Below are positions 9,507 through 61,027 of a DNA stretch of 64,000 nt, piece by piece. The stretch is from Enoplolaimus lenunculus. Lineage: Eukaryota. The translations under genes were made by a program, and so were the position numbers. The stretch lies in contig JASANG010004131.1 of NCBI GenBank assembly GCA_030248215.1, forward strand, positions 62,001-126,000. The letters run 5' to 3'. Below the pieces are notes generated by a model. The model did not search any database and was not told the DNA's origin. It worked only from the letters and a program-made list of their open reading frames with translations. Each line of letters begins with the position of its first letter. Within the stretch, counting starts at the first letter, position 1.

Positions 9507-10531
9507 TTACCCGATAACTACCACCGTAGCGAAAAGTGTAAACATAAACCTATGCCTAAGCCTAAGCATAAAACCTGAAATTCGTTCTTTCTACGCCCTT
9601 GAGCCTTGGATTGTTCTAAACTACTTAAGCTGTATTTGTGCAATCTGCATTTGAAACAAAAACATAAATAAAGCACGGTGTTGTATAGTTACGCCTCCGT
9701 CATTAATAATTGCATCTGCGCGTGCAAAAAGCATTTATCATTTTCTTCACTCGATTGCACTTTGTACACAAGTTCATGTTTGCATTTTATCTTGCGCTGA
9801 TGCAAATTTTGCCGGCGCCTAAAGTTGCAGTTTACAGATTAATATAATTTGTTTATAAGCTTTGCTATTGATATATGTTTTCAATTTTGCTTAAGCTAAC
9901 GGTCGCTGTTTTGTGGCTTTGTTAGAGTTGTTTAATTGCTAGCTACTATTTTTCTTTACTTTTGGTTGGTTTAACGTTGTTTTCTGAGCTGCGCAGCTGA
10001 AAGGTTTAGGATTGAACTTTGGGCTTTGAAACAATACTGATCCGGTCGAAATCCAGCAGTAGTACGACCAAATAGTCACGTTAACTCATGTGACTTTAAT
10101 TCAACACATAGTCAATTGACCTCAGTAATGTCCTAACGCCATGTCGAAATTGGTATTGTAGTTGTAATAAATGCTGTAGTGACCCGAACAAAACGGTTGG
10201 GAATAAGAGGTGGTCCCTATTTTGAGTTCCAATCAATAGTAGTCCGTATAACTAATGAGTACGTAAGCGGATAGAGTTCCTAGACTCTGATTAGAGTTTA
10301 TAAATGTCAATTATCTCTAATTGTAGTGCTTAACTGACTCCAGACCATCTTATAGTTGAGTTCGAAACTTTAAAGCATGCTTTAGTTTTGAACGTACATT
10401 CTGAAGTATTTTTTGATACGAGACAAATAAACGTTTAATTCAACGGATAGTTGCAATACCGGATATTTATCACTAACGAAGGGCGGCGGAGGGCTGGTTA
10501 TAAATAAATAACAGTCCGTATATATCGTTTT

Positions 10532-10731
10532 GGCCCATGTAAACATCTGGGGTGGAACGTTTTTCTGTCGGACTAGAATAGAGTAAGCTTAAGCTTTAGA
10601 CTCATTTTTGTTAGGCTTAGGCTTAGCCTTAGACTTAGAAATATGCTCATTCTTACGCTTAAACTTAAGCTTAGGCTTAGGTTTAGGAATATGCTTATAA
10701 TACTGTTCCGCCCCTGTTCTTTACATTGGCC
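10532..10731. mobile_element. TTAGGC-containing MITE
   Basis: GGCCCATGTAAA...TTTACATTGGCC, perfect TSD ATCGTTTT. Confidence 0.9.
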
Positions 10732-11813
10732 ATCGTTTTTATAGTATTCATTACACATTGTAACAGACTGAAACTGCCGTACCGAGTAACTTAACGCGAA
10801 CTATAGTACTGATGAAAAAAAGCTAAAAACATTTAAAATATTTAAATTTTCCAAAATATATAAGCTTTAAATTCGAGATCTTAACTCGCTAAAGCAATAT
10901 TGTTTATGCTGTATTTAAAATCGTGTTCAATGCTTCTTATTGTTGCATTACCTACTTTCTGAAGTTGTTAGCCCCATAGCCCTTTAGAAAATAAAAAGGA
11001 CTAATTTTGTATTAGGCAGTGCCACAGTTTATATTAAAGTATTTAGGCTTAATTGCGTCTTTGTTCAAAGTAATTATCAATTGCACACAAATACTGAAGA
11101 TATGAGTCAGTGAGTTACCTTGCATTTTTTGGGCCAACTGAAAATTGGTATGCAAGCAATATGATTAATTAGGCCGTGTTTGATTGCACTATTGCAAAAT
11201 ATGAAACGTTTGACTTCGGCAAACTTGGATGAAAACTATGCTGGAACGTTTTTCTGAGGTACTGGAATAGAGTAAGCTAAAGCTTTAGACTGTTTTTGCT
11301 TGACCCAGGCTTAGGCTTAGTTTTTAGACTAAGGTATAAACGCATTCTTACGCTTAGGTTTAGGCTTAGGCTAAGGTATATAAACTCATTCTTACGCCTA
11401 GGCTTAGGCTAAGGTATATAAGCTCACTCTTACGCCTAGGCTTAGGCTTAGGAATCTGCTTATACTACTGTTCTGTTTGTTCTTTACATTGGGTCCGATC
11501 TTGTATGCTTTATTGACACCTCTACCATGTTGCTAACATCGATAAAAATGAAAATTTTTGTCACAATCAGTTTTCGCAAGTCTCTGCGCCTGTGTCGTAT
11601 TTTCAATAATTTTTCGAAAAATTTACATCAAACCAGGCCCAGCCAGAAAGAACACTTTATTGTGTTAAAAATATTATTTTTGAAAAATTGGGGAAATTTA
11701 AAAATACCATCCAGTACCCGGTGGCTAGACAAGCACCGTAGGTGGTGCTGGTATGGTGTATAAAATGCAAATCGTCACCGAGGTTCACATGCAAGGCTCG
11801 TTTTGAGAAATCT

Positions 11814-12141
<328 letters not shown>

Positions 12142-12434
12142 TTTTCGTTTTTGTGCCAGCTCTCAAAATGACAAATAATGGACGATTCAAAAGTTGTATA
12201 ATCACTTTTACTTGTATTATTTACATCAATAATGTCGAAAAAAATGTGTATTTTAACTTTTTTCATAGTAACTCTGGTGCCATTAACGTATTCTGGATTT
12301 TGGAGAACGGGTTACGTTCTATAATTATTTCACAGAGGGTTTGGTCTAAAACCTTTTGGCAAAAATTTGCAAAGGGGTTTGACCCCTGCACATTAACACC
12401 CTGGCTACGCTCTTGTCTTGTGCACAAAAATTTT

Positions 12435-19445: not shown

Positions 19446-22030
19446 ATAACAAAATTATCCTGAAAGGCTTAATATGGAATTGAGAGTAACTTAAGAATCA
19501 CTATTAGTTGCTGTGTTATCGATGCGAACAAGGGTATGTAAGAACATAAAGGTCATATCGCTTCCGTAAATTTCTTAAGCTTCCGTAAATTTCTCAAGAC
19601 CAGGGGCATCCACAGAAAATTCTATCTGGGTGAGTACCGAATAATTTTGGGGTCCTACAATTACAATTCAAGAACGTTTACTTTTGGACCAAGTCTATTT
19701 GGAGGCACTAGCCAAATTTAGTGGGCCGGCCCCCAATGCCCCATGTGGGGACACTCCTGTTGAAGAGACGTAAAAACTCAACTTTTCAAACGGTTTAAAG
19801 CAACCGTTTTGATCGTAAGTACAGGTCAAAAACATTTTCTCGCTTGCTTTCAATTGAACTTTTACATGACGCGTATTCCGTTTTAAACTAAAATCGTTGC
19901 AAAATGTTTGTTTCAAATTAAAATTTAATTTGTCATAATCGAGTCGAGACACACAAGTGTCCGCTCCTGCAATTTTAAACTCAAAACAGTTAAACGGTTG
20001 TATATTTTAAATTGAAACCGTAGTAATTTTTAACGAAAACTCCCGAAATTGCACTATGTTTGATCGGAGGCACTCACGTCTAAACCCATCACCATGGATA
20101 AAAATTAAATTTTGTTCTGAGATTTACTACTAAAATTGTGTTTGGCTTTTCCCCTACGAGGTAATTTGCGTCAATACGGGTATATCTCGTGTGGCGGTCC
20201 CCGTCAGAAATTTTTTTTGGATCCGCCGCCTGCCGATGCTCGTGTTAAATGACCGACGGAATTGGGGGGATTAAAATTTTGTTGCGACTTCTCCGGCCGG
20301 CGTCGTATAAGTGTCATTGTATTGTAGACAGAGACTGCTAAATGGTGCACTATACTATGTTTCAGTGTTCAATACAATGACGATGTTGTTTAAAATAGAC
20401 GAACATAATATTAAATTTAGGACAAATTTTGCATTTTAATTTTGAAATTACAACCGAGGCTACTGATAGATGTTACCAGTGCACAACGTTTCAGTTGAAT
20501 GATAATTTGTCGTACTGGGTAACCAGATGCGGATCCACAAAAATTTTTGACTCTGGGGCAAATGCAATCAAACGCAAAAATTGTAAGGTAGGGACCGTAT
20601 CATTTTATCACCAAACAAATTTCTGAGGGCGAAAAATTTGACAAGTAGGGACGTTACCATTTTAACACAAAAAATGCTGACGGGAGTGTTGAGTTTAACG
20701 ACGGATTGGACGGGATTATGTGGATCGATGATTGATTTCGTTTTCAGAATTGAGAGTACCAAATATAGCGTATGGTTTTTCGTTCGTCAGCGTTTGCCCT
20801 AAATTCCACTATTTTTCATTCCTGCCTGAAAATGTAGCATGTGTCTTTGAGACTTTTCGTTCCTTGCTCACTAAACGTGAAGGTACGCACGGCAATGCTG
20901 CGCGCTACCCGCAGGTAATCGCGGGCCGGGTAAAAACATTTTGATCCGGGTATACCCATCACGAGTAAAAAAATTTTCAAAGTGCAGGTAAAAATTCGTT
21001 AACGTTTATTTACTCACTTACACGAATGACATACGGAATTGCATCACAGGTCATTATTGATGTTTGGAGGTGAAATTGTGTTATCTCCTACGGTCTCGAT
21101 TTTTAAGAATAGCCTAACCGAAATTGATTTAACTAATTTCGTCAAATTCGACCGAAACTTAGGTTAGATATTTTAGTGGATTCCGTTCGCTTTCTAGCTT
21201 CGGCCCATGCATCGAACACGGCTGGAACAGTAGTATTAGTATATTCCTAAGCCTAAGCGTATCGATGAGCCTATTCCTAAGCCTAAGCCTAAGCAAAAAA
21301 AAATTAGTCTAAAGCTTCAAACTGACTGTATTATAGTCCCTCCGGAAAACGATCCGGCCCTGTTCTATACATGGGCCCTAGCCTCTAATTTTATTGAGCA
21401 CCAATGTTATTGTTTGTTTTTCTGTATTTGTAACGTCTACATACATTCTGACTGCTCAATAAACAAATACAAAAACTATATATACTTTGGGAGAGATCCA
21501 CGTTGAGATTTGCCTTCGCTGTTGTTTTTGCATCGAATTTCATTCAAACGACATACTTCAACATTAATTTCATTCAAACGTGTCATAATCATGGTTTTTA
21601 TTGAATGATATATGACTTACCGTGTCACTTTCTAGTCCACGACAGTGTCATCATTGCTCAAACTGTGGGTGGATTGAATGCTGGGTTAGAGACAAAATGC
21701 GCTTAGGAAATTATAGGAGTGAGGCAAAAAATATATGGAATGTCATGTTGGTCCATTTGCAATTGATCACTGGTCTGTTATTGGCTATTTTGTTTGCTCA
21801 GAAACTTTCGTTGAGTGTTTGAGTGCTTCTAGGTCAGATGATTTCGGGAAACTTAATCCGCAGACATCACCCACAAAATTGTGGTGGGGCCTACCAGTAG
21901 TATACACCCTCTGTTGGGACGGTCGTTGAGGCTGTCCCAAGTGAGGGTGTTAGCCCCCTGAGAATCGAAAATTTTTTCATGTGGGGGAGATATTTTCCTC
22001 TAGGTAGGGTAGGTCATTTGCGTTTTTCCC

Positions 22031-24954: not shown

Positions 24955-26089
24955 TATAATGGTATAAAAAACTCACAAGAGAAATTGAGCGAGAATCCAA
25001 ACGCCATCCTAGTGCCTAAGTGCCTTAATACAAAGTCTTAATTTTGAACCTTGTTTAAGACGAGGCCTTGGTCAGGCATGATGGCGTTCCCATTGGACAA
25101 GCCAGTTTGCTCATTAGAGATATATGCCCCGGATCTTGTTTGGCACGAGTTCGAAGACGTCTGTTTAGTCGTGTTAACCGGGGTAGACTTGGCAAATATT
25201 GCTAAACATTTATTGTTCGCATTACAAAATACAAATTATCTATAATAGTACAAGGTGTTTTCGCTGTACTTGAGGCTGTTCGCGTTAACCATTTTATTAT
25301 CCAGAAACTAAAATTATTTTGCTTGAAAAGTGTGATTTTTTTTCGCAATCTTTGGGTAAGCAAAGCTTTGCAAGCGTTATTTGTTGGTTTTGCCAGATAT
25401 CAGTTGTCATTTAACCCACAAATGTAAACAGGTGTGTTGTTTGGGTTGTGACACTATTTGGTCGTCGTAATTATACGTACGTACTAGATTTGAACTAACA
25501 CAGAATTTAAAAATTTTTTACTAGGATATTGGGTTTAGTACACTACTGTCATAACAGGCCTACGAACACGATTGATTGTCTAAACCTATTTCTTTTCTTA
25601 TGAATGTTTTAAGTATGGGCTTAAGCCGAAGCCTTAACTTTATATTTGGGGGGAGGGAGTGTAAGCCTTTCTGAGCGAAAGTCTAAGCCTTAACATTAAA
25701 TCTGAACGAAAAGTGTATGCCTTTTTGAGCCTAAGGGGTAACTTTAATTTTGGACGACAAGGATAAAATTGCGCTTAGCTTATCGGTCGCTTATATGTAA
25801 GTGCGAGTAGCAGCCTTCGTCAGAAATTTCTCGACCTGCCACTGTTTCAATTACACGGATGTTAACTTTAAATTTTATTTCAATTTGAAGTGAAACTTTT
25901 CATTTTGAATTATTTTCTATTTTCAGCGTTTAACGTATTATGTAGAGTAAATTTTTGCAACGAAACGTTATTCAAACTTAAAAGGTCAAACCTTATAAAA
26001 CCGTTCAACCGAGACATTTTGCTCAACAATTCGTGTCGTATCAGTAAACATCGTTCACAACAAGTGCCTCTCAGCTACTCTTAGGGAGC

Positions 26090-26651
26090 ATGGATCCCTC
26101 GCTTTGCCGTCAACCAGGGGGTCCACTCGATGGAGACGACTCATGCAGCTCAACAGCAGTGTATCCAGTGCCGCCTGACAGTGGATATTTTTCACCGTTT
26201 ACCCCTCAAACTCAAGGAGCGAACAACAATTCACCAACGACAAGTTCAACGACATCCAGTTCAACTACAACGGAACCGGAAATATTCAACTTTGAGCATA
26301 TTCAAAATTCGCATCCGCTTCCGGAAAAATGTGTCAGTTACGACGAATCTGCGGCAGCGGTGGTTTCCGCTCAAATTGGACCAACAAAGACACCAAAACA
26401 GCTGGATATGAGCCAAAGTGCAGTGTATTTACGGCGTCGAAAATCACGGAGCGCTCCTGATATTCCCAGTGGAACAGTTTCAACTCGAATGGCGAGAAAG
26501 CAATCGTCGAATGGCGACGCTCAGATGCATACAAGCGTCAAAGATGCTCAACGAACAACAGCCATGGATGTGCCACATCAACAATTCGCTCAACGTCAGT
26601 GGAAAATTGCACCGAATCGCGAACAGCCTAATATGGTGTCTAACGCTTCAG
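26090..26651 (+). CDS. Gene A coding exon 1: BH3-only, BIM-like pro-apoptotic protein (N-terminal disordered regulatory region)
   Basis: ATG at 26090 in a 204-codon ORF. Donor CAG|GTACGA after 26651 (562 nt, phase 1). Encodes VPPDSGYFSP (26168-26197), PEIFNFE (26276-26296) and RRRKSRSAP (26432-26458). The first two motifs recur in the 49394 minus-strand ORF. An upstream acceptor TTTTCAG| at 25926 suggests the exon starts in 5'UTR. Confidence 0.85.
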
Positions 26652-26700
26652 GTACGAGTGAGCTTTGTACGCTAAGCCAACAACAGCAGGGCTGTCTCGG

Positions 26701-26869
26701 CTGAAACGTAGCCAAGGAGGGGCCGGGGGGGCTCAGCCCTCCTCTTGAAAATTTTTTGCCCCCCCCCAAAAAATTTTTTTTCAACCTTGCTTGTAAGTCA
26801 CTGAAAACCCTTAAACGCCCCTTTGAAAAGGGTTAACCCCCCTAGCAAGGTGAGCTGGCTACGAGCCTG
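26701..26869. mobile_element. hAT-type MITE in the intron after gene A coding exon 1
   Basis: CTGAAACGTAGCCA...TGGCTACGAGCCTG, TSD TGTCTCGG/TGTCTCGT. Confidence 0.85.
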
Positions 26870-29800
26870 TGTCTCGTTCAAAAAGTGAACCCTGAGACCG
26901 AGATTCAACTGCTGACACCGTGACCTCACATCCCCCTGCATGAGAGTTTACATGTGTAATTCAGTGCATTATGTCCATATTGCAGCAGTGTATACAACTG
27001 GGTACGTTCTGTCTACAAAAGAATGTATGCAACGCGTGTGGCGTTTTTGGCCAGCGCCCCCTTCTTCATATCTGACGGTCAAGGTTGCCTAATTGAAGAA
27101 AATCAGCTGTAAATCTGTGGTGGGGGGCACATGTAAATGTTCCACTTATATTCCTGATCAATTGATGCGTTTCTCGAAAAATGTATGTGTGACAATCTAC
27201 CCCCGCCCCCTTTCTCCCTCAAATCAAGGGCGTCTGGCCAAAACCAAACGTACGCTGATGGTACATTTTGTGCCATGTACTAGCGTATCAATTGCACACT
27301 CTTCTACAAGACAGACACCATCGAGTGTTGGTGGAACAAATATAAAATCAGTTATCACGGAATCAACCGTTTGTTGGAGTCAAACTGAAGGCTGTATAAT
27401 TTAAAATTATCCATTTTAAGGTGAAAGTTGCGTCTGCTGAAATGCGCCTGGTTATCACACGACCTATTAATATACCTACTGACGAATTTGTGTCAAAATT
27501 ATTTTTAAATTTATACTAAACAATAATTTCAGTTCGCTGAACGTTATGTTTTTGTAAACTTTTAGTTTCATTTTAAAATTTTCAATTCTGTCCCAGTCCA
27601 AGTTTGCAGTAATTTAATCATAATTTCGTTACTGTCTGCGCTTAAACTAATATTTAAATGTGGTATCGAAAGCGTTATCTCGAGACTGTTTTTAATTTTA
27701 TTATTATTATTATTATTATTATCATTGTTGTTATTATTATTATTATTGTAAGCGACTAAAGTTTATCACGCAATTCCCTTGAGCGACTACTGGCAAAAAT
27801 TTGTTGTTAGACTCGTGAGGGCCTGCCTCGGTGTAGAAGAGTGAGATGGACAGTTCGTATAGAAAATTTACTCAAGGTTATTGTGTTGAAATTATTGACA
27901 CAAATTGTGTAATAAGTCAAGATATATAAATATATATAATATATATAATATATATATACATATATATGTATGTTTATATACGAAATCGTACGTAGTAATA
28001 ATTTCATGATTGCATATGTACAGAAGTGGTTAAGATATTTTTGTAAATGCGAACGAAACATGTGGAAATTGCAAATTGCAGAAAACAATACGACACAACG
28101 AGTGTTAAGGTGGAAATTGAGAAATTGAAATGAAATTCTACATTAAGAACATTAAAAAATTTAGGTCTTTAATTTGATTCGATAATTTTTTGCTGGTATA
28201 GGCTGCAAAAACGACTTTTAGGGCGAAAACAACATAAGCTAGGGCGTGTTCAGCGTACCCTGACTTGCGGCTGGGACATTTCCCCACGTTCCTCTCAACA
28301 CCGACTGCTAATCATGCCCTCAAACCATAGTAATTACTTGTGGTGTTGACGGAAAATGATTCTAGTTGTGTCCAAAATCCTTTATGAGAATTGAATATAT
28401 TGGGGGGGTCATTGCGCTTTGACTGTTACAAAGTTGTACATAATTTTTATTGAAAATAACGAAAATTAACTAATAAGTTTTGCAGTCATCGGCGGATCCG
28501 GGAAATTTCTCACGGGGGGAAGCGAGCAATTTATTAATCTTTAAGAATCTTTCGATGGAATAAATAAATGCATTTTTAGTATTAAATGTTAATACAAAAT
28601 TTTGGTTTTGAATTTTTGACGCGTTGTTGGCTTGACACAGGCTTTCAGCCAGTGCTGTTTACACTATTATTAATAAAGTCGACAAAGTTGCAAAAGTAAA
28701 TTTGTAAAAAATATTAATTTTTTGATAACGTAGATTTGATTTGTATGCCATATTTGATCGATATTGGAAGATGCGACCCGCCCCATGTTCGTGTTGTCGT
28801 CGAATTTGAACGTTTTTGCGACGAAAGGAAGTTTTGAGAAACTAATTTGAAAATTTTGAAAAGCCCAGCTCGTTCGCGCGGATGGTAATGAGGTCATTGA
28901 ATTTGTGTTGCTTAGAGAATGATGACGGAAAAAAATCTCGACAGGAGGTCGAATGTTTACTATTGGGGAAATGAGTATTACACTAGTGATTGCGAGGGGG
29001 TTAATTTGTGTTTTGGAAAGTGGATGAGGGAAGAATAGAAAATAGGCAGTGAAATTGAAAATTAGATATACTTCATTTAGTACAGGGTGTTAAGGTAGAA
29101 TATGTATATATCATGGCCGTTGGAAAGGTTGGGCACGCTATGATCGTAGTCCGTATAATTTTGTGCAGATTTAGAACACTAGATATCATGATTTAATATA
29201 TCAGGGTTCCACCATAATTGCTGTTCCGGCCTGAACTTCTGCAGAAATTCAATTCCTGTTCGGTTCCTGCATTTAAAGATGCAGCAACGGGAATTTTTAC
29301 GGGTTTGTGTCAAATTGTCCATAGGAACCGAAATTTTTTACGGTTTTGTGTCAAATTATTTATAATCATTTAAATATTCAAAACTTTGTCGGTGAAAAAT
29401 TGTCGTTTCAAAACGAGTATTTTTGCAATTAGTTCAATCTTGTTTAATAAACTGTTTCTGATGTGTTTTCGCAAAACATGATTGTGAAACAGCTCAAATT
29501 TTGTTTAATCCATTTTGTGGCAAATTTTTCTCCAACAGTAATTTGGTGATGAAAATTGTTTCAAATTCCGGTTCCTGTTTAGGTTTCTGCATAGAAATTC
29601 AATTCCTGTTTCTGTTCCGGCAAAATTTAGTTCCAGTTGTACAATTTTTTTTGCTTGAATCACATTGCAGTCACCTAATCAAAGGATTTGAAAAATTTTG
29701 GGATCGATATTAGTTTTTTTGGATATCTAAGAGGGATCTAATCCAACTGAAAATTGTTTGGAAACCTTCGATACTGGGTGATGTGATTAAATGTGTTTCA

Positions 29801-29929
29801 GGCAAGAAAAATATACGAAGGACTTTTATTTGATCGTACAAGGCGGGGAGATTCTATAAATCGCGGAGACCTTTTTAATTGTTTTTCTTACGCTGCAAGA
29901 ATATTCGACTGTTGTCAATTTTATTTTAG

Positions 29930-30342
29930 GAATCACTCGACATTATGATACCGGCTCGCAAACGGAAGACTCGTCAGAAGATGATGCTATGGTTATGCAA
30001 TCGTGTGCCAAATATTTAAATGATGATGATGCGAAAAGAACCAGCCAACCAAATACGGATGACGTCAGCATTGACCAATTAGATTCCGTTCCGACGCAGT
30101 CGTCAGCAGCCAATAGAAATGCGCGATTTGTGGTGTCTTCCAACGATGCAAATTACAGTCATCAACAGTATCAACCAACTCATGAAGAACATCAAACATA
30201 TTTAAGAGTCGGGCGTCAACTTGCGGCAATTGGTGATGAGATTGATCGACGCATGGGTGGTGCTACTCACTACGACGGTCGAACGCCTGGATTTCAAGAT
30301 GCGGTGTTGTTCTGGGAAGCACTGGATCGGGTGTTGTTGAGG
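29930..30342 (+). CDS. Gene A coding exon 2: LC8-type motif plus BH3 domain
   Basis: Acceptor TTTTATTTTAG|GA at 29929/29930 completes the phase-1 codon (G+GA=Gly). Reads GITRHYDTGSQTEDSSEDDAMVMQ...LRVGRQLAAIGDEIDRRMG...FWEALDRVLLR. Perfect donor AGG|GTAAGT after 30342 (phase 0). Confidence 0.88.
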
Positions 30343-30522
30343 GTAAGTGAGCATAAGATTTCAGGGTTTTATGTATCGGGACTGTGCTTGGAACCGAGCC
30401 AGCGTTGGCGGGCCTAGGTTAAGCATCCAAAGAATTTTTTTGGGGGATAGTCGTAGATTTTGGATTTCTTAGAGGTTGAAAGTTTTACACGAAATGAACT
30501 CTGTGTCATCTTTGGCTACAGG

Positions 30523-30882
30523 CAGGGTGCAAATGGAATTACAATTTACCGGAACCGGAAGCGGAATTTGAAAATTTTACCAGAACCGGAACCGGAAAGT
30601 GACAAATGCATTTCACCAAAAATTTTATAATCTTATTTTTTGCTCTATTATTTGTGAAATAACCTTAGTCGAACATAGGTATTTATTTTATTTGTTGTAT
30701 TTTAGATTTTCATCATCGACTCTGAAGTGAAATCCACCATCAATGGCTTATATTCGGAGTACAGGTGGCTTTCAAAAGAGATTCTTAAAAATTAGCAAAG
30801 TTAAGAAAACGGCCAAATTATAACAATGGAATTTTTAAATCCGGTAAAAATTTACCGGCACCGGAATTCCGGTTGCACCCTG
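30523..30882. mobile_element. hAT-type MITE (CAGGGTGCAACCGGA family, ACCGGA subterminal repeats)
   Basis: CAGGGTGCAA...GGTTGCACCCTG, perfect TSD GCTACAGG. Confidence 0.85.
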
Positions 30883-37989: not shown

Positions 37990-38196
37990 CACTGCAAAAA
38001 ATGGTGAGTGAAATTGACTCTCCGAAGCAGGCTTTTCCTGACTACACAAACTGAGTCAAAATTGGACTCCGGCAGAGTTGAAATTGATTCACTGAATCGT
38101 TCAGTGAGTCGAAGGCGGAGTCGAATTTGACTCAGTATGTGTAGTCAGGAAAAGCCTATTTCAGAGGGCCAATTTCACTCACCATTTTTTGCAGTG
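37990..38196. mobile_element. Palindromic CACTG-ended MITE
   Basis: Same family as 4417, flanked by TG/TG. Confidence 0.85.
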
Positions 38197-43146: not shown

Positions 43147-43354
43147 CACTGCAAAAAATGGTGAGTCAAGTCGGCTCACTCCGAAATAGGCTTTTCGAGA
43201 CTGCACAAACTGAGTCAAATTTGACTCCGTCAAAATTAAACGTGCGACTCAGTGAGTCAAATTTGACTCTGACGGAACCGATTTTACTCAGTTTGTGCAG
43301 TCCCGAAAGGCCTATTTCACAGATCGCCAGTTTGACTCATCATTTTTTACAGTG
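43147..43354. mobile_element. Palindromic CACTG-ended MITE
   Basis: Same family as 4417, flanked by TA/TA. Confidence 0.85.
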
Positions 43355-46632: not shown

Positions 46633-47682
46633 GCAGTTCTGTAGTAGTCTATATACATACAGCGCATAGCAAAAAATGTACTGAAACCTGATTGGAGCTC
46701 GTTTAATGTTTTCAGGTTTCGCCTACTCTGATTGGAAGTTTCGCCTGTTGCAAAACGAAATGTCTTTCGCTGGTTAATTGAATATTATCCTTACCGGCTG
46801 ACATGCGGTAGCTTTATTCGCAAATAGCATTTGATTGGGTTATCAGTCAGGATCGCAATAACCATTCAGCGACGCTCCATATTAGCTGAAACAAAAGTAG
46901 TTAAGTCATTATACAAAGCAACTGTTCAAGCATGTGTCAACAAGGAACGCAATTTATATGCTAGTCGTCGTAGTTTGTGATGCTGAGTCGAATGGTGTTA
47001 AATTTTCTGCTAAATGCCAGAATAGTTATTTGACCATTACTCGTGAACCAGTGGTTGGTTTGACGGCAGACCTATAACACCATTGTGTTCAGCTGCCAAA
47101 ATTGCGTTGAACTGCATATATGCTGTTAAATTGTTTCCGTAAAATAATTTTTTCGATCTCAAGGGGGCGTTATGATTTCAAACCTTGCCAGAATTCAAAA
47201 TTTTATCTGTGGAATGATGAGGGCAGACCATGAGACAAACTATAGAAAACAAAACTAATTCGTATTATACTTGAGACAGAATATCAAATATATAAAAATG
47301 AATATTTAACTGTGACGCTTTGTCTATAAAAGCTTTTAAGAAGCCATATATTAATTTAAAAGTATAAAGCACACGTGCAACTATACTAGTCTCGTTATTG
47401 TAACATTTGATTAAATACAGATTTAAGCTAAATATTTTTAATAAGCTTTGCTGCTTAGCCGTTTTCATGCTTGAATTCATGTTTAGCAAACGACATCAAC
47501 AACATGTTTCTAATAGTAATCTGATTTTTCAGGTTTAGGGTCAAAACTTTTAGTCTAAGAAGTTCTAATGAAAGCATTCATAATTTCTCCTGAAGTATTT
47601 TCAGTTTAAAATTGTTGAATATAAATATAACTAGTCTGCCAGCTTTGCGCAAAGCACAAAAATTTCTTTGCAAACTTTCTTT

Positions 47683-47947: not shown

Positions 47948-48252
47948 CTTTAGACAAATTTTCGCAATCATTGTCAACCGACCGGTTTGCAATCGGACAA
48001 CAAGTTTCGGTTGGGTGTGTCGAGTTTGTTTCAACTCAATTTCGTCACCAATTTGAGCCAAGCGACGTCCAATATTTCGACATACTGTTAACGATGGGGG
48101 AGGTGAGACAGTTGCACGGGTTTCAACGGTAGTTTGAAAGCGAGTCGCGTTGCAAAATGTGTGAGTTGAAAGCTCGTTTGGAAAGAATGTTGAGTCACAA
48201 CCGTGGCTAGTAGATGCTGAATGAGGTGACTGAGATAGCATTTGGTTAGGTT
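47948..48252 (-). CDS. Gene B coding exon 2 with BH3 domain
   Basis: Acceptor TTTTTGTTTTAG|AA at 48253/48252 completes the phase-1 codon (A+AA=Lys). Reads KPNQMLSQ...TVCRNIGRRLAQIGDEIELKQ...AKICLK. Perfect donor AAG|GTAAGT after 47948 (phase 0). Confidence 0.88.
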
Positions 48253-48778: not shown

Positions 48779-49394
48779 TTTGGTTTGGACTGATATTTTT
48801 CGCCGAGTTCGAGTTGCTGTTTTGCAAGTAACGTTCTTTTGTCTTTATCTGCATTATCTGAGGCTCTGCAGCTTTGTGTGTGTTCCAGCATCTGCCTCGC
48901 GGTCCCGAAAAATCAGGCAGACATTTCAATTGATGCATACTGTTCGATTTCAGGCGTTTACTATCCGGCGTGTTTGGCACAGCTGTAGCGAGACACGGCG
49001 CCGAAGTTGAAAACGTTGAATAATTTTGGTATTTGGCCGGCAAATAGGGTTTCAAATCGTCAAAAGCGCATGAGCTTCGTTCGAACTCAGGATCAGGCAA
49101 TAGCTCATACTCGCTGCTGGTGCTAATACTGCTTGGGTAATTGCTCGATGTTGCGAAAGGATGCAAAATTGATTTGTGACAGTTGGTTGAAACTAAATAA
49201 AATTCATCTTCGCTGTCGAATGTAAATATTTCAGGATGGGTCGGTTGACTGTAAGACAAGCCAATGCTCTTACTACCGGTTGAATAGTTCTTGGATAACG
49301 TTTTTGTGGGCGAAAAATATCCGCTATCCGGTGGGACAAAGCTTGATAGAGAACATCGGTTAGGTGATGACGTCAACGGTGACGAATGTGACAT
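48779..49394 (-). CDS. Gene B coding exon 1: BH3-only, BIM-like protein, paralogue of gene A
   Basis: ATG at 49394 (ACCATCATG) in a 215-codon ORF. Donor A|GTAAGT after 48779 (616 nt, phase 1, same as gene A). Encodes VPPDSGYFSP (49337-49308), PEIFTFD (49235-49215) and STSAP. Confidence 0.85.
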
Positions 49395-49870
49395 GATGGT
49401 AATAACAAATTCAAGCTGCGACGACTAATATATGTAGTATTTTTTTCTAAAAATAATTTCGGAAATTTTGTAAGTATATTTGATTCAAAATCCAAACATA
49501 ACTTTTTATTGGCTACTCGTGAACGACCAGTGCATAAGCTTCGCATACCGTTTGCTAATACGATATGTTTCTACAGATTCCAGGGTGTAAGCAGAGAGTA
49601 AAAATAACGGAACCGGATAGTGATTAAAATAACGGAAACGGATACCGATTTTTATCGCAAACGGATATCCGGTAACACCGTGTTAGAAACATATCTTCGT
49701 GCCTTACAGGAGTATGCTGCGGTCTTCGTTAGGTTGGTAAAATATTTTAAATTTTTTTGAAAATTGTGTACACTAAACATCAGTAATTTTGGTTTAATCA
49801 ATTAACGCAAACTTTTTTCGCCTAAGTGGTAAGCAGGCGGCGTATAATTGGTTTATATTTATTCATCAAC

Positions 49871-52784: not shown

Positions 52785-53691
52785 TTTTTTTCGTGTACAA
52801 ATCAAATTATAAACATATATACTATGTTTCCGATTTCATCCGGTCCATATTTATTTCTACCTATTCCTGATTTAACTTTTGTTGCGGTACTTTTACCGAA
52901 ACATACAGATTTGAGGACATATGTCGATGTTTCATCTTTTACAAGTTTTAAAAAATGTTTGGGCTATACATTAAACCTATCCAGGACCTGTCTGTCAAAA
53001 CGTCCATAATAATTACGTCACTGAGTGAAACTCAGAGCTAAACGTCAGTCGTTTCCCTGTGACAATAACTTAAACATATTTTGCGCGTTCCATGCCTCTG
53101 TTATTGCTTGCAGTCGACACTTTTAGCTATAATCAAAAAGCGCATTCCACAATATAAGATCTTATGATGTTTTCAGCTTATCGAAGCGTAACTTTAGCCA
53201 GAAGAATAACAGCTTGCAACCGCGCTTAACTCATGCAAGACAGAGATATTCTTGCGGGCAAAACCGCAGTAGTTTTAATCACTCAGCCTATTTAATTCGT
53301 TTATGGTTATAGGTTAGGATACTTGAAAATGAATGATAATTGGTTAGCGACTAAATTGGTAAAATATAGTAAAAAAATTGCACATAAAATATACTTAAAT
53401 AATTTGAGTCAAAAACTTTAAGTTAACATTAAGATTGTATTTACGTGATGATAGCAATTATCTCTCTGTTGACCGTGGTTTGCTGAAAATTTTTGGATGC
53501 AATTTTTCAACGAGAGCTGTCAGCGTATATCTTATTGAAGTAGCAGCGCATGCTGTTAATTATATTGGCCTGTTCACTAAGCCTAAGATTAAAGCTAAAC
53601 GTAAGCATAAACGCAAGCATAAACATAAGCCTAGTTCTAAACTTATGCCTATTCTTAAGGCTAAACCTATGGGTGTCTAAGTCCCCCAGCC

Positions 53692-53921
53692 GGCCCATGT
53701 ATAGAACAGGGCCGGATCGTTTTCCGGAGGGCTATAATAGAGTCAGTTTCAGCTTTAGACTAATTTTTTTGCTTAGGCTTAGGCTTAGGCTTAGGCTTAA
53801 GAGTAGGTAGGCTCTTCCATACGCTTAGGCTTAAGAGTAGGCTCTTCCATACGCTTAGGCTTAGGCTTAGGCTTAGGAATACGCTTATACTACTGTTCCG
53901 GCCCTGTTCTATACATGGGAC
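53692..53921. mobile_element. TTAGGC-containing MITE with internal duplication
   Basis: TIR GGCCCATGTATAGAACAGGGCCGGA, TSD CCCCAGCC/CTCCAGCC. Another copy follows at 54019-54182. Confidence 0.9.
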
Positions 53922-56340
53922 CTCCAGCCTATCCGCATATCAGTCGGTAGCCCCTATAAACGCGATTTAAAGTAGCTGTGCACTCGTACTGACTCCCATT
54001 AGAAACTTTGAATTATTTGGGCAATGTAAAGAACAGAGGCGCAACAGTATTATAAGCATACTCCTAAGCCTAAGCCTAAGCCTATATAAGCCAAAGCCAA
54101 GCAAAAAAATTAGTCTAAACCTTACACTTACAATATTCTAGTCCCGCAGAAAAACGTTCCGCCAATGATCTTTACATGTGCCAAATAATTTAACCTAAGT
54201 CCTCTAGAGTGATAAGTCTTTATTAAGAAAATGACTATTTATTAATTCAATTGCAGCCACTAAAATAAAAAATTTTGTCAACTGGTTCTCTGGTTCGACT
54301 AACAAGACAATCAACCATCATCTGTTAATACAACACGCTACTTTAACCTCTCAGTCAATGATTGAAACCTAATTATGCAATCAAATCTAAATCTAAACAC
54401 AAACGCCAATGTTAGGGTCGAAGAAAGGCGGAGATCTCATGAGAGACCACACGGAGAGACAAACAAGCCACTTCACACCTTCGAAGAATTCGCTCAAGTA
54501 GCTTGACGTTGAATAATTGCGATGATTAGACGAAATTGATTTGTGGACGCGCATTGGTGAATAGGTGACTTAGCTAGTGCCATTTGGCTTTTGATTCCTT
54601 GAACGCGTAAATTAATTGGAACCAACAAGGTTGAAACAATTAGAAATTTTTCGTTGGACTGCACAAGTTTAGAGTAAATTCAATGATGTAGAATTGTTGG
54701 CCCACTGTCTGGTTGACAACAGGTAGAAAACAGGAATAAACTGTGTAAAAGTTACCTGATATGTGTCCAAGTGCTATTGTAACAATGTCAAACAGCAACT
54801 CTTATGTTCCCGATTTAACTTTCAACCCCAACTAACAGATGCGGACATGTAACCAGAGAATGGCCATGGGGGCTCAGCCTAATCATGCAAAAATTTGCGC
54901 CCAGAAATTTTTAAAACTTGCTATCGCAAACGTTTGTATGCCCCTCCTAAAAATTTTCCAGCCCCCATGTTGACTGACGATAGGCTTAGACAGATCTCTA
55001 CCCAGCCAAAGCACAGCCACTAAAAATTAAAAGGAACTTGCCAATTAGTGAAAATATAGATCGGCATCTCAGTTTAAAGAGAGTAACGAAATTCTGTCAG
55101 CCTTCAAGTTTAATTGCTAAAATGTTCAACCTGAAACCGCAACCAGTTTTCAAAGTAGGATTGCTCAAATTAAAATGATTCTGATTCGCTCCGAACAATT
55201 TAAATAGTATCATGGTTCAGTTGAAAATGAAATTCAAAATGATATTTTGTACTCAGGGGCGCAGCCAAAGTTTTGTATCGCAGGTGTTAATAGGCAATAC
55301 AAAAATTTTAGAGACGGGTTTTTTTGTGCGTTACAAAATGACAAAGCAACCAAAACTCTAGTCACAGATTACAAAAGTCGTCATTTGGGGTTTGGATCCG
55401 CGTTGCCCATACGTTCTGGCTAGTGATGTATAGAACCAGTAAAAGGATAAACAATTTGACATTGTTATATCAAGCTGTCGTGTCGGCGGTCTGAGAGGTG
55501 CTAGATCTAAAGAAGCCATATGGCGGTTAGCGTTTAGCGCCTACGCTTTGTTAGAATTGCACCAATAATAATGCAGCCAAAATTACAATTATCTCGTAAT
55601 AATAGAACGCACAACATTCTTTGGGTTAAATTGAGTAAACTCATGCTGGTACTGCGCTATTTGCAATCAGTATGTATAGAATTTGCAAATAATCATTTAG
55701 TTTACAATTGAAGCTTTAAGCTGTAAATGCAAATATCATGGACCGTCAGGAGCTAATGAAAAAGTCTGGCCAATGTGGAAATTTTTTGGACCGAGCTAGG
55801 AGACAAGATGGCCCCAGTGGGCTGTGTAGTCATACTGGAAAAATTTTGACCCTCCAGAAAATATTACTTCGGCACCCAATGTTGAGCTAATTCTGAGTCT
55901 TAGTTCGAATGAAAAATAACAGCTCAATTGTGGTATATAACGATTAAAGCTTAAATGGTAAACTGAAACATTTTGAAACAAATTTTCCTATACTGAAACT
56001 AAAAAATTACGGTGACTAAACTTGAACAGCTTTAAAACGGCGCGGCTCCGGCGTAAAAAATCAAAGCCACGCTTTTTTAATTACCAAGTATTCAATATAT
56101 ATATTTCCACTTAATAGCTATACTCCAGCTATAAATAAGTAGCTTACTAGTCCCGGTGGACATTTAATTTGGTAAATTGCACAATGATATTACGTAACAG
56201 TTCAAGGGGCGGAGCATCAAAAACATAGGAGTCACAAGGGCTGGGCGGCGGAATAATGGTGAAAGAAATTGACGAGGGTTGCAAGCAAGAAGCAAAATAT
56301 AATTTAAGTATAATTTGTAACGGGTCGTTATCATTTTTGG

Positions 56341-56546
56341 GGCCCATGTATAGAACAGGGCCGGGTCGTTTTCCGAAGGGGCTATAATAGAGTCAGTTTA
56401 AGCTTTGGACCAATTTTTTTGCTTTAGGCGTAAGCTTAGGCTTAGGAATAGGCTCATTCATATGCTTAGGTTTAGGCTTCGGCTTAGGCTTCGGCTTAGA
56501 AATATGCTTATATACTACTGTTCCGGCCTTGTTCTATACATGGGCG
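56341..56546. mobile_element. TTAGGC-containing MITE
   Basis: GGCCCATGTATAGAACAGGGCCGG...CCGGCCTTGTTCTATACATGGGCG. Confidence 0.85.
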
Positions 56547-59056: not shown

Positions 59057-60845
59057 TATTTGTCTACGTACAATTCCCCATAAACAGTGTTTTAATTTTT
59101 TGTATTTCAGCATAACTTAGGCACAGAATATGCTGATGTCTTGAGTCTTGACATAAGCTAAGGTTTCAAATTAGGCTTAAGTTCGCATGTTGAAATGCGT
59201 ACAAAAACCTTATTGTTGTTAAGAATGGCAAATTTTACATGGTTGATGTACATAAAAGTAATTGGCATTGTGAATTTAATTTTCTGAAGCGTTTTTAAAC
59301 CCACAATGTATTAAGCTACCTCTGCAGGTCATCAGAGCTTTCTCTGTAAATCAAGATCTATCTACATAAAATAGGATAAAAAGACATTATATAATTTCTA
59401 ACTGCGAAATGGTTATATGTTTAATGCTTTTACTAAGATTCATGAACACATTCAAAAGCTTGTAAAAAATCGGAATTTGAAATGCGAAGGGAAACAAAAA
59501 TTAGGTAAATATAAAACAAAGTTGCTTTTATGAACAGCAGGGTTGCAGGGTACAATCGGTGCTGAAAAGCGGAGCCGGAGCCGAAGGTCAATAAACTTTG
59601 TCGTAACCGGAGGAAAACTTTACCGCGTAGCCGGAGGCGAACATTACGCCGTAGGCAGAGTCGGTTCATCCCATGTTTTGTTTGTTTTAATACGATGATT
59701 GCGACTTGTGTTATTTTGCAATTTTACTTCGAGAACCAGAAACATATTCAGTTTAGTGAACCTTGTTTAGGCATTCTACCTATAGCGTAAACACTTCTTA
59801 TCACCCTGTAAATACTTTAATACAAAATTGCTTAAACAACTATATTACTACTACCACTCGACCAAGCTTATTAAAATTTATCAGTTATAATTATATTCAC
59901 CTTGCCTATTAACAATTCTACAGCAGTAATCACTAGAACAAGAACCAGAATTTAACCAAATCGTCCGTGCATTCCACAGAGATACGGAAGAAAATTACTG
60001 GCGTCATGTCGCGAGAGACCAACTGAGGCGTGGCTGCAGTGTGACCCAAACGCCATTTGGCAAACGGACACGTCGTCGTAAACAAAAGCAACAAAAGAAA
60101 ATTTGCAAAACTTAACAACATCTGAGGTAGTAAATATGTGTTCTGCGTCATTGTCTGCGAGATTTTATTCGACGAATGCACCTGAACGAGAAAATGCCAT
60201 TAAAGTCGACAGTTATGCGAAACACGGGAGCAGTTGTACCCTCTTGGCAAAAATTTTAAATCAAAAAAATGGTTTAAGTTTCGACGTTATAGTTTCAAAA
60301 ATGTCAAACTTGACACATCCGTTTTCAAACTATTCTTCAGTCTGACCACCTCACTTGCACATTTCCACCAATATTCCGACGGCATCCACATAAATATATT
60401 ATGCTTGGTATAGCGTGCAGGTTTAAAAAGTATAGTGTTTATTTGTACGTAATTGGTTTTAAAGGTTTATGTTTGGCGTATACTTACAACGTTAGCTAAT
60501 TAAGCGCACAAAATCCCTATATTGCGTTGATGGAATTTTTAATTTTTAATTCGATTGCAGACTTGCAAAAATTACTGCAACTTAAATATGTATGCCATGG
60601 GTTGAATAATTAAACACGAAAAACTAAGCTTAATATAATTGAGATTCTGATTGCGTAAACCACGCCCATATATATACAATCTACGGTGCTCTCTTTTGTG
60701 CTTTTAGTTGGCAATTGAGCACCACAGGCAAGCATTGGCTGTTGGGTTTGGTTCAGATTTGTGGTTTACGAACGTAGATGCCATAGTTTAGCATTTTGCA
60801 ATATAAATATAGTAATGGAAACATAAAATTAACCATAAACATCAC

Positions 60846-61027
60846 GGCCCATGTATAGAACAGGGCCGGATCGTTTTCCGGAGGAGCTGTAAAAGAGTCA
60901 GTTTATACCTTAGACTAACTTTTTTGCTTAGGCTTAGGTTTAGGCTCAGGGGTAGGCTTAGGCTTATAGGCTAATGTTTAGGAATATGCTATATAACTAC
61001 TGTTCCGGGCCTGTTATATACATTGCC
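60846..61027. mobile_element. TTAGGC-containing MITE
   Basis: Family TIRs, TSD AACATCAC/AACATTAC. Confidence 0.85.

Follow-up and report, generated by a model that had tools for sequence, protein, structure and literature searches.

Which kind of cell-death gene is represented by an invertebrate locus that appears to combine hallmarks of vertebrate BIM, BAD and BAK? This question is raised by gene A, which is predicted in a stretch of 64,000 nucleotides from Enoplolaimus lenunculus (contig JASANG010004131.1, positions 62,001 to 126,000 of the forward strand; the whole 64-kb stretch is called the window here, and all coordinates are counted from its first base). A preliminary description had read gene A as a mosaic of BIM, BAD and BAK motifs, and the four motifs concerned are present in the order described: DSGYFS, RRRKSRSAP, YDTGSQTE and VGRQLAAIGDEIDRR, beginning at 26177, 26432, 29944 and 30208, respectively. 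We found a diverged paralogue, gene B, in the same window, and the sequences suggest that the two genes are likely to be a BIM-like BH3-only gene pair. BH3-only function appears quite probable, and the fuller explanation towards which we lean is a disordered BIM-like death trigger, duplicated into a pair and controlled by a degron.

Gene A is predicted to comprise three exons on the plus strand (26090-30795) that encode a mostly disordered protein of 354 residues, in a model built on splice signals. The ATG at 26090 opens an open reading frame (ORF) that contains DSGYFS and RRRKSRSAP, and a second ORF carries YDTGSQTE and the BH3 motif. Splicing from a phase-1 donor at 26651 to a T-rich acceptor at 29930 unites the two ORFs in frame and without a stop, giving coding exon 1 (26090..26651, residues 1-188), a repeat-rich GT-AG intron of phase 1 (26652..29929) and coding exon 2 (29930..30342, residues 188-325). 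Exon 2 ends in a phase-0 donor (AGG/GTAAGT, at 30342) that can splice to a short last exon (30706..30795, 29 residues and the stop codon) to complete the 354 residues; this predicted exon is the least certain of the three, and an alternative tail results if translation reads through the donor. According to this gene model, all four motifs would reside in one protein.

Gene B lies on the minus strand (49394-47948), convergent to gene A and about 17 kb away. Its coding exon 1 (48779..49394, 205 residues) ends in a phase-1 donor, and its coding exon 2 (47948..48252), with the BH3 motif IGRRLAQIGDEIE at 48073-48035, ends in a phase-0 donor; a hydrophobic candidate last exon of 14 residues (47195..47239, minus strand) uses one of 21 candidate acceptors and is uncertain. 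The two genes have in common the string VPPDSGYFSP (26168..26197 on the plus strand in gene A, 49337-49308 on the minus strand in gene B), a PEIFxF block (PEIFNF at 26276..26293 on the plus strand and PEIFTF at 49235-49218 on the minus strand), the BH3 motif and intron phases 1 and then 0. In both, the phase-1 intron precedes the BH3, and the phase-0 intron stands 40 (gene A) or 37 (gene B) codons past the BH3 leucine. The exact word they share is ten residues long (none of 5,000 shuffles reached nine or more, the longest shuffled word being eight), and the local alignment scores of 91 for exon 1 and 49 for exon 2 each exceed those of all 5,000 shuffles. The three shared blocks span 29 codons, 9 of them identical, 15 with synonymous differences and 5 with residue changes. 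Because 15 of the 24 conserved residues (among 29) use different codons, the shared blocks are under selection at the protein level. DNA similarity between the 9-kb regions of the two genes is confined to a single 77-base piece outside the coding exons. Such a pattern marks an ancient duplication in which the protein has been under selection. The predicted degron and BH3 of gene A are well supported because they belong to blocks selected in this way.

The BH3 motif of gene A (30208..30252, plus strand; residues 281-295) lies in exon 2 in a predicted helix and has the L-x3-(G/A/S)-D core and the flanking hydrophobic positions that the BH3-only definition demands (as given in PMC10107002). The full pattern has a chance of 0.0005 in shuffles of gene A and 0.0003 in shuffles of gene B. 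In a single-sequence structure model of exon 2, only the BH3 helix is confidently placed (predicted local distance difference test, pLDDT, 84; mean 57), and a second helix is modelled at the end of the exon. FoldIndex is -0.04 overall and negative in 12 of the 14 first windows of the protein, which predicts disorder. Disorder outside the BH3, a trait of BH3-only proteins, is thus indicated by FoldIndex as well as by the exon 2 model. All ESM Atlas neighbours of exon 2 were BH3-bearing chordate clusters (BAK-fragment, BMF/BIM-like, PUMA, BMF, PXT1, BIM, BIK and NOXA, at 0.75-0.89), to be read as leads only. The exons could be misjoined, or the protein may be no death trigger but a disordered signalling protein of short life whose BH3-like helix is incidental, and BH3 identity is stated to require biochemical proof (PMC7022251). 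We regard this as a very improbable explanation, given that gene B repeats the two-exon arrangement, the phases and the motifs, and that the full BH3 pattern, with the low shuffle values given above, is under protein-level constraint.

The string shared by both genes contains a predicted beta-TrCP phosphodegron (DSGYFS at 26177-26194, residues 30-35, in exon 1 of gene A) that follows the canonical consensus DSGxxS (PMC13097077). In 20,000 composition shuffles of the 354-residue gene A model, DSGxxS had a chance of 0.021 and SGYFS of 0.00025, the latter figure overstating significance since SGYFS, like SRSAP below, was picked post hoc from vertebrate motifs. The corresponding string of BIM-EL is SSGYFS, and gene A differs from it in its canonical DSG and in the proline after the second serine. 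The BIM-EL degron is described as Ser93/94/98 (PMC4695108), primed by ERK and RSK (PMC4695108; bioRxiv 2025.08.14.670414). As in BIM, the predicted degron of gene A lies upstream of the BH3, and it is kept in gene B. The PEIFxF block, which the preliminary description had not noted, is conserved like the degron, stands 25-27 residues past it in both genes and is followed by acidic residues. Our guess is that it may be an FxF kinase-docking site; the region of BIM-EL with the ERK sites is reported to contain an ERK docking domain (PMC6193418).

The layout of gene A also resembles that of BIM. Degron, LC8-like site, BH3 and tail follow one another in the order found in vertebrate BIM-EL (BCL2L11), in a protein of 354 residues as against 198 in BIM-EL. 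The BH3 exon of BIM is followed by a phase-0 intron. Gene A has a phase-1 intron before its BH3 exon, as does BIM, in which that intron follows c.394 and is of phase 1 (PMC12170254; PMC4695108).

If the spliced protein is made as predicted, its BH3 helix would occupy the groove of pro-survival Bcl-2 proteins, so that Bax/Bak-type effectors would be released, and the amphipathic tail would bring the protein to the mitochondrial surface. Survival signalling would hold the protein level low via the degron: a proline-directed kinase, for instance ERK, perhaps docked on the FxF block, would phosphorylate Ser35-Pro, Ser31 would be phosphorylated after Ser35, and SCF/beta-TrCP would then send the protein to degradation. 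Gene A alone would add a plausible capture by 14-3-3 at Ser121 and at most weak LC8 binding. We infer every binding partner in this scheme, the kinases, the killing activity and the kinship with BIM from sequence features.

Several observations weigh against the BIM-like reading. The three gene A exons matched no Pfam family at E up to 10 in a scan that includes the BIM, BAD, BMF and PUMA models, and gene A likewise had no match to the Bim_N or Bclx_interact profile at E up to 10. Among the 36 PDB matches of the gene A BH3 and the 26 of the gene B BH3 there is no BIM, BAD, BMF or PUMA chain, which counts against close kinship with BIM. Agreement in intron phase has a one-in-three chance of arising by accident. 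The LC8-like motif of gene A lies just after the phase-1 intron and that of BIM before it; where a BIM orthologue would be expected to have a TQT-anchored motif in the exon preceding the BH3 exon, gene A has SQT inside the BH3 exon. Its 14-3-3-like site stands past the degron, whereas Ser87 of BIM precedes the degron. The tail, formed by the end of exon 2 and the last exon, is amphipathic and moderately hydrophobic, and with a best 19-residue hydropathy of 1.36 it does not qualify as a classical transmembrane segment. PMC10107002 describes BH3 motifs as short sequences that can originate de novo. Finally, orthologues of gene A were not found in protein, profile, metagenome and viral-contig searches (below).

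These features could be the product of convergence, in which a disordered protein confined to one lineage and without relation to BIM would have acquired its BH3 and its beta-TrCP degron independently and would act like BIM without being its kin. Against such an origin stand the agreement with BIM in the arrangement of exons, the phase of the intron and the order of the motifs, and the match of the YF in the variable positions of the degron to the BIM string. These two residues are not required by beta-TrCP, and other degrons differ at these positions (PMC13097077). On the other side, all the common features are short linear motifs, DSGxxS is present in 2% of shuffles, the BH3 sequences of both genes are nearer to those of BAK, BIK and BID than to that of BIM, and most BH3-only proteins are reported to be phylogenetically unrelated (PMC10107002). 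We judge convergence to be somewhat unlikely, and retain the BIM-like pair as the preferred reading.

The likeness to BAK, which had been presented as a hallmark, has a different explanation. The BH3 of gene A is identical to that of human BAK at 12 of 15 positions and ranks BAK first in the PDB (E 0.00056), followed by BIK (E 0.044). The BH3 of gene B ranks BID first, and gene B also weakly matches the Pfam BID family, below the cut-off. A joint profile of the two BH3 motifs selects BAK, BID, BIK and PXT1 together with three Bak-type peptides (5twa, 6wgz and 6yld). BAK itself is a multidomain effector and not a BH3-only protein (PMC6193418). Unlike BAK and other multidomain proteins, in which the BH1 and BH2 of a Bcl-2 fold come after the BH3, gene A continues for only about 60 residues past its BH3, and its protein is predicted to be disordered. 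No Bcl-2 fold, BH1, BH2 or BH4 was found in gene A by the Pfam scan or by Foldseek, which matched no fold to the low-confidence exon 2 model. Because the two paralogues receive different best labels, the BAK likeness is apparently drift around the general BH3 consensus and not a borrowed part of BAK. A true chimera, in which exon shuffling or gene conversion had brought in the BH3 of a BAK gene, would account for the 12 of 15 identities and for the best PDB match; we consider it extremely unlikely, as no similarity extends beyond the BH3 helix, the motif is embedded 90 codons into an exon that is otherwise unrelated, the BH3 of gene B occupies the same place in the exon structure with BID as its first label, and no Bcl-2 domain was found.

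The second motif, RRRKSRSAP (26432..26458, plus strand; residues 115-123), had been likened to the 14-3-3/Akt site of BAD. The string around that site in BAD is RGRSRSAP. Gene A resembles BAD in SRSAP around a candidate 14-3-3 phosphoserine, Ser121, upstream of the BH3 (chance 0.002 in the same 20,000 shuffles, again overstated by the post hoc choice). Unlike BAD, it has one such site and not two, lysine at -3 (Lys118 when aligned on Ser121) and no match to the Pfam BAD model. The strict patterns RxRxxS/T for Akt and RxxS/TxP for 14-3-3 mode I have no match in gene A. Akt requires RxRxxS/T (PMC11606119), and the 14-3-3/Akt sites of BAD satisfy RxRxxS (PMC6193418), a trait of BAD orthologues that gene A does not have; Ser121 is probably not an Akt site. 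KSRSAP does conform to (R/K)xxS (14-3-3 motif I and (R/K)xxS kinases are described in PMC5607241), and binding of 14-3-3 at Ser121 is plausible because of the serine at -2, the proline at +2 and the preceding basic run. At the place aligned to SRSAP, gene B has STSAP without basic residues, and a pattern search of gene B returned neither SRSAP nor any S/TQT.

YDTGSQTE (29944..29967, plus strand; residues 193-200, exon 2) is LC8-like with a weak SQT anchor. The strict LC8 pattern K/RxTQT has no match in gene A, and the chance in shuffles is 0.034 for DxxS/TQT and 0.34 for bare S/TQT. LC8 motifs are described as favouring Asp at -4 and Glu at +2, both of which are present in gene A, and as preferring a branched residue at -1 (PMC6607443). 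Table 1 of PMC6607443 (47 rows) contains five SQT-anchored peptides, excluding a row in which SQT and TQT are both present; none of the five binds strongly, one is weak and four are non-binders. The predicted LC8 site is at most weak, and it could be rescued through bivalent binding.

The mosaic claim thus survives in part. The BH3, the canonical DSGxxS kept in the paralogue and a non-random BAD-like SRSAP stand, the last as a plausible 14-3-3 site present in gene A only; the BAK, Akt and LC8 components are not supported. It was also overstated that vertebrates split these inputs among different BH3-only proteins: BIM-EL alone is described with the degron, an LC8 site (PMC4695108) and Ser87, an Akt site that binds 14-3-3 (PMC4695108; PMC11606119), so that a multi-input BH3-only protein is the pattern of BIM and not something that vertebrates lack. 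Conservation of the motifs can be read in one relative, paralogue B, which keeps the degron and the BH3 and lacks SRSAP and SQT. What is left of the claim is, on present reading, a BAD-like string of five residues that one of the two paralogues carries in its BIM-like protein.

An ancestral version of the claim can also be weighed here. Gene A would keep the motif set (degron, 14-3-3, LC8 and BH3) of a single pre-vertebrate BIM/BMF/BAD ancestor, and two of these motifs would have disappeared from gene B once the genes had duplicated. In gene A the five residues SGYFS are those of the BIM string and the five residues SRSAP those of the BAD string, with the post hoc shuffle values above, and the three-exon layout with a phase-1 intron is that of BIM. 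In PMC8998228, untested BH3-only candidates are described from echinoderms (350 and 373 residues, obtained with BIM, BAD and BMF as seeds), hemichordates and amphioxus, and as possible in lophotrochozoans; gene A resembles these candidates in its length (350-373 residues in two echinoderms), in a BH3 carried on one exon and in predicted disorder. The same survey reports that no BH3-only genes were found in urochordates, and caspase-9 is reported to be lacking in five ascidian genomes (bioRxiv 2021.12.21.473695). The ancestral reading is nevertheless unlikely in our view: gene B has neither SRSAP nor SQT, neither the lysine at -3 nor the SQT anchor fits its consensus, the LC8 motif stands on the opposite side of the intron from that of BIM, and the profiles of BIM, BAD and BMF do not match. 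Equally doubtful is the corollary that kinase-triggered beta-TrCP destruction was an ancient brake on that ancestor.

The search for homologues was broad. In word-indexed protein searches, neither exon 2 (192 candidates of lengths 241-2000) nor the exon 1 ORF (523 candidates) nor the shared N-terminal blocks (250 candidates) had a match at E up to 10, and HMMER with an N-terminal profile of both genes found none at E up to 0.001 among 1.84 billion representatives. Exact look-up returned none of four, and neither the 142 pattern matches of a metagenome profile scan nor the 18 in viral contigs were confirmed. PDB sequence searches gave one match for the LC8-like motif, none for SRSAP and one for the degron, all irrelevant. 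The failure to find orthologues is weak evidence, since even the two paralogues reach only 18-20 bits (exon 1) and 8 bits (exon 2) when compared with one another, a distance beyond the reach of the searches. Exon 1 had low recognition in the ESM Atlas, with one fungal DUF4667 cluster at 0.76 that was rejected, and the degron DNA pattern at 32 metagenome loci was in no case accompanied by a downstream PEIFxF, SxSAP or BH3 pattern and was read as chance. In the literature searched, with subscription papers outside its scope, no paper on this gene pair was found, and the DSGYFS string was absent from the ten top-ranked papers.

Outside vertebrates, BH3-only proteins are described as hard to trace and as often held to be unrelated products of motif convergence (PMC10107002). 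The retention of a BIM-like degron under clear selection in an invertebrate pair suggests that placing a death trigger under kinase-to-beta-TrCP control is old or has been repeatedly favoured. PPDSGYFSP about 25 residues before PEIFxF offers a non-BH3 signature for finding such genes in animal genomes.

An RHG/Hid-like N-terminal inhibitor of apoptosis protein (IAP)-binding motif, given as A-[KTVI]-[PAE]-[FEISY] in PMC8620624, is absent from both genes, which are predicted to start with MDPS (gene A) and MSHS (gene B). Each gene has a strong acceptor 55-165 bases 5' of its ATG (25908..25926 on the plus strand for gene A and about 49449-49460 on the minus strand for gene B), consistent with either an untranslated first exon or spliced-leader trans-splicing.

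The window has a guanine plus cytosine (GC) content of 37% and a CpG observed/expected ratio of 1.04, which speaks against vertebrate DNA. Only two protein-coding genes were found in it (1-64000), and the BH3 pair stands in a gene-poor, repeat-rich stretch. We scanned 201 of the 293 ORFs of at least 55 residues, mostly those with GC of 36% or more and excluding ORFs over genes A and B and over a simple repeat, and obtained three weak sub-threshold matches and no gene. Likewise, 42 of 43 short candidate exons yielded two weak matches and no further gene; the codon model was trained on genes A and B, so that its ranking of their own exons is circular. No tRNA was found in a search of the window, and all eight Rfam matches fell short of the gathering score; the top two were inverted repeats. 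The inverted-repeat hairpins at 38020-38166 and 43185-43316, below threshold against microRNA models, are probably miniature transposons. A family of dispersed repeats, each roughly 200-300 bases long and containing TTAGGC/CCTAAG arrays, is present in more than 10 copies and in both orientations (1253-1480, 10526-10743, 21196-21378, 53686-53933, 56335-56526, 60840-60976 and others). An array of 114 copies of the trinucleotide TGT (11813-12154) gives rise to spurious poly-Val, poly-Leu and poly-Gln ORFs.

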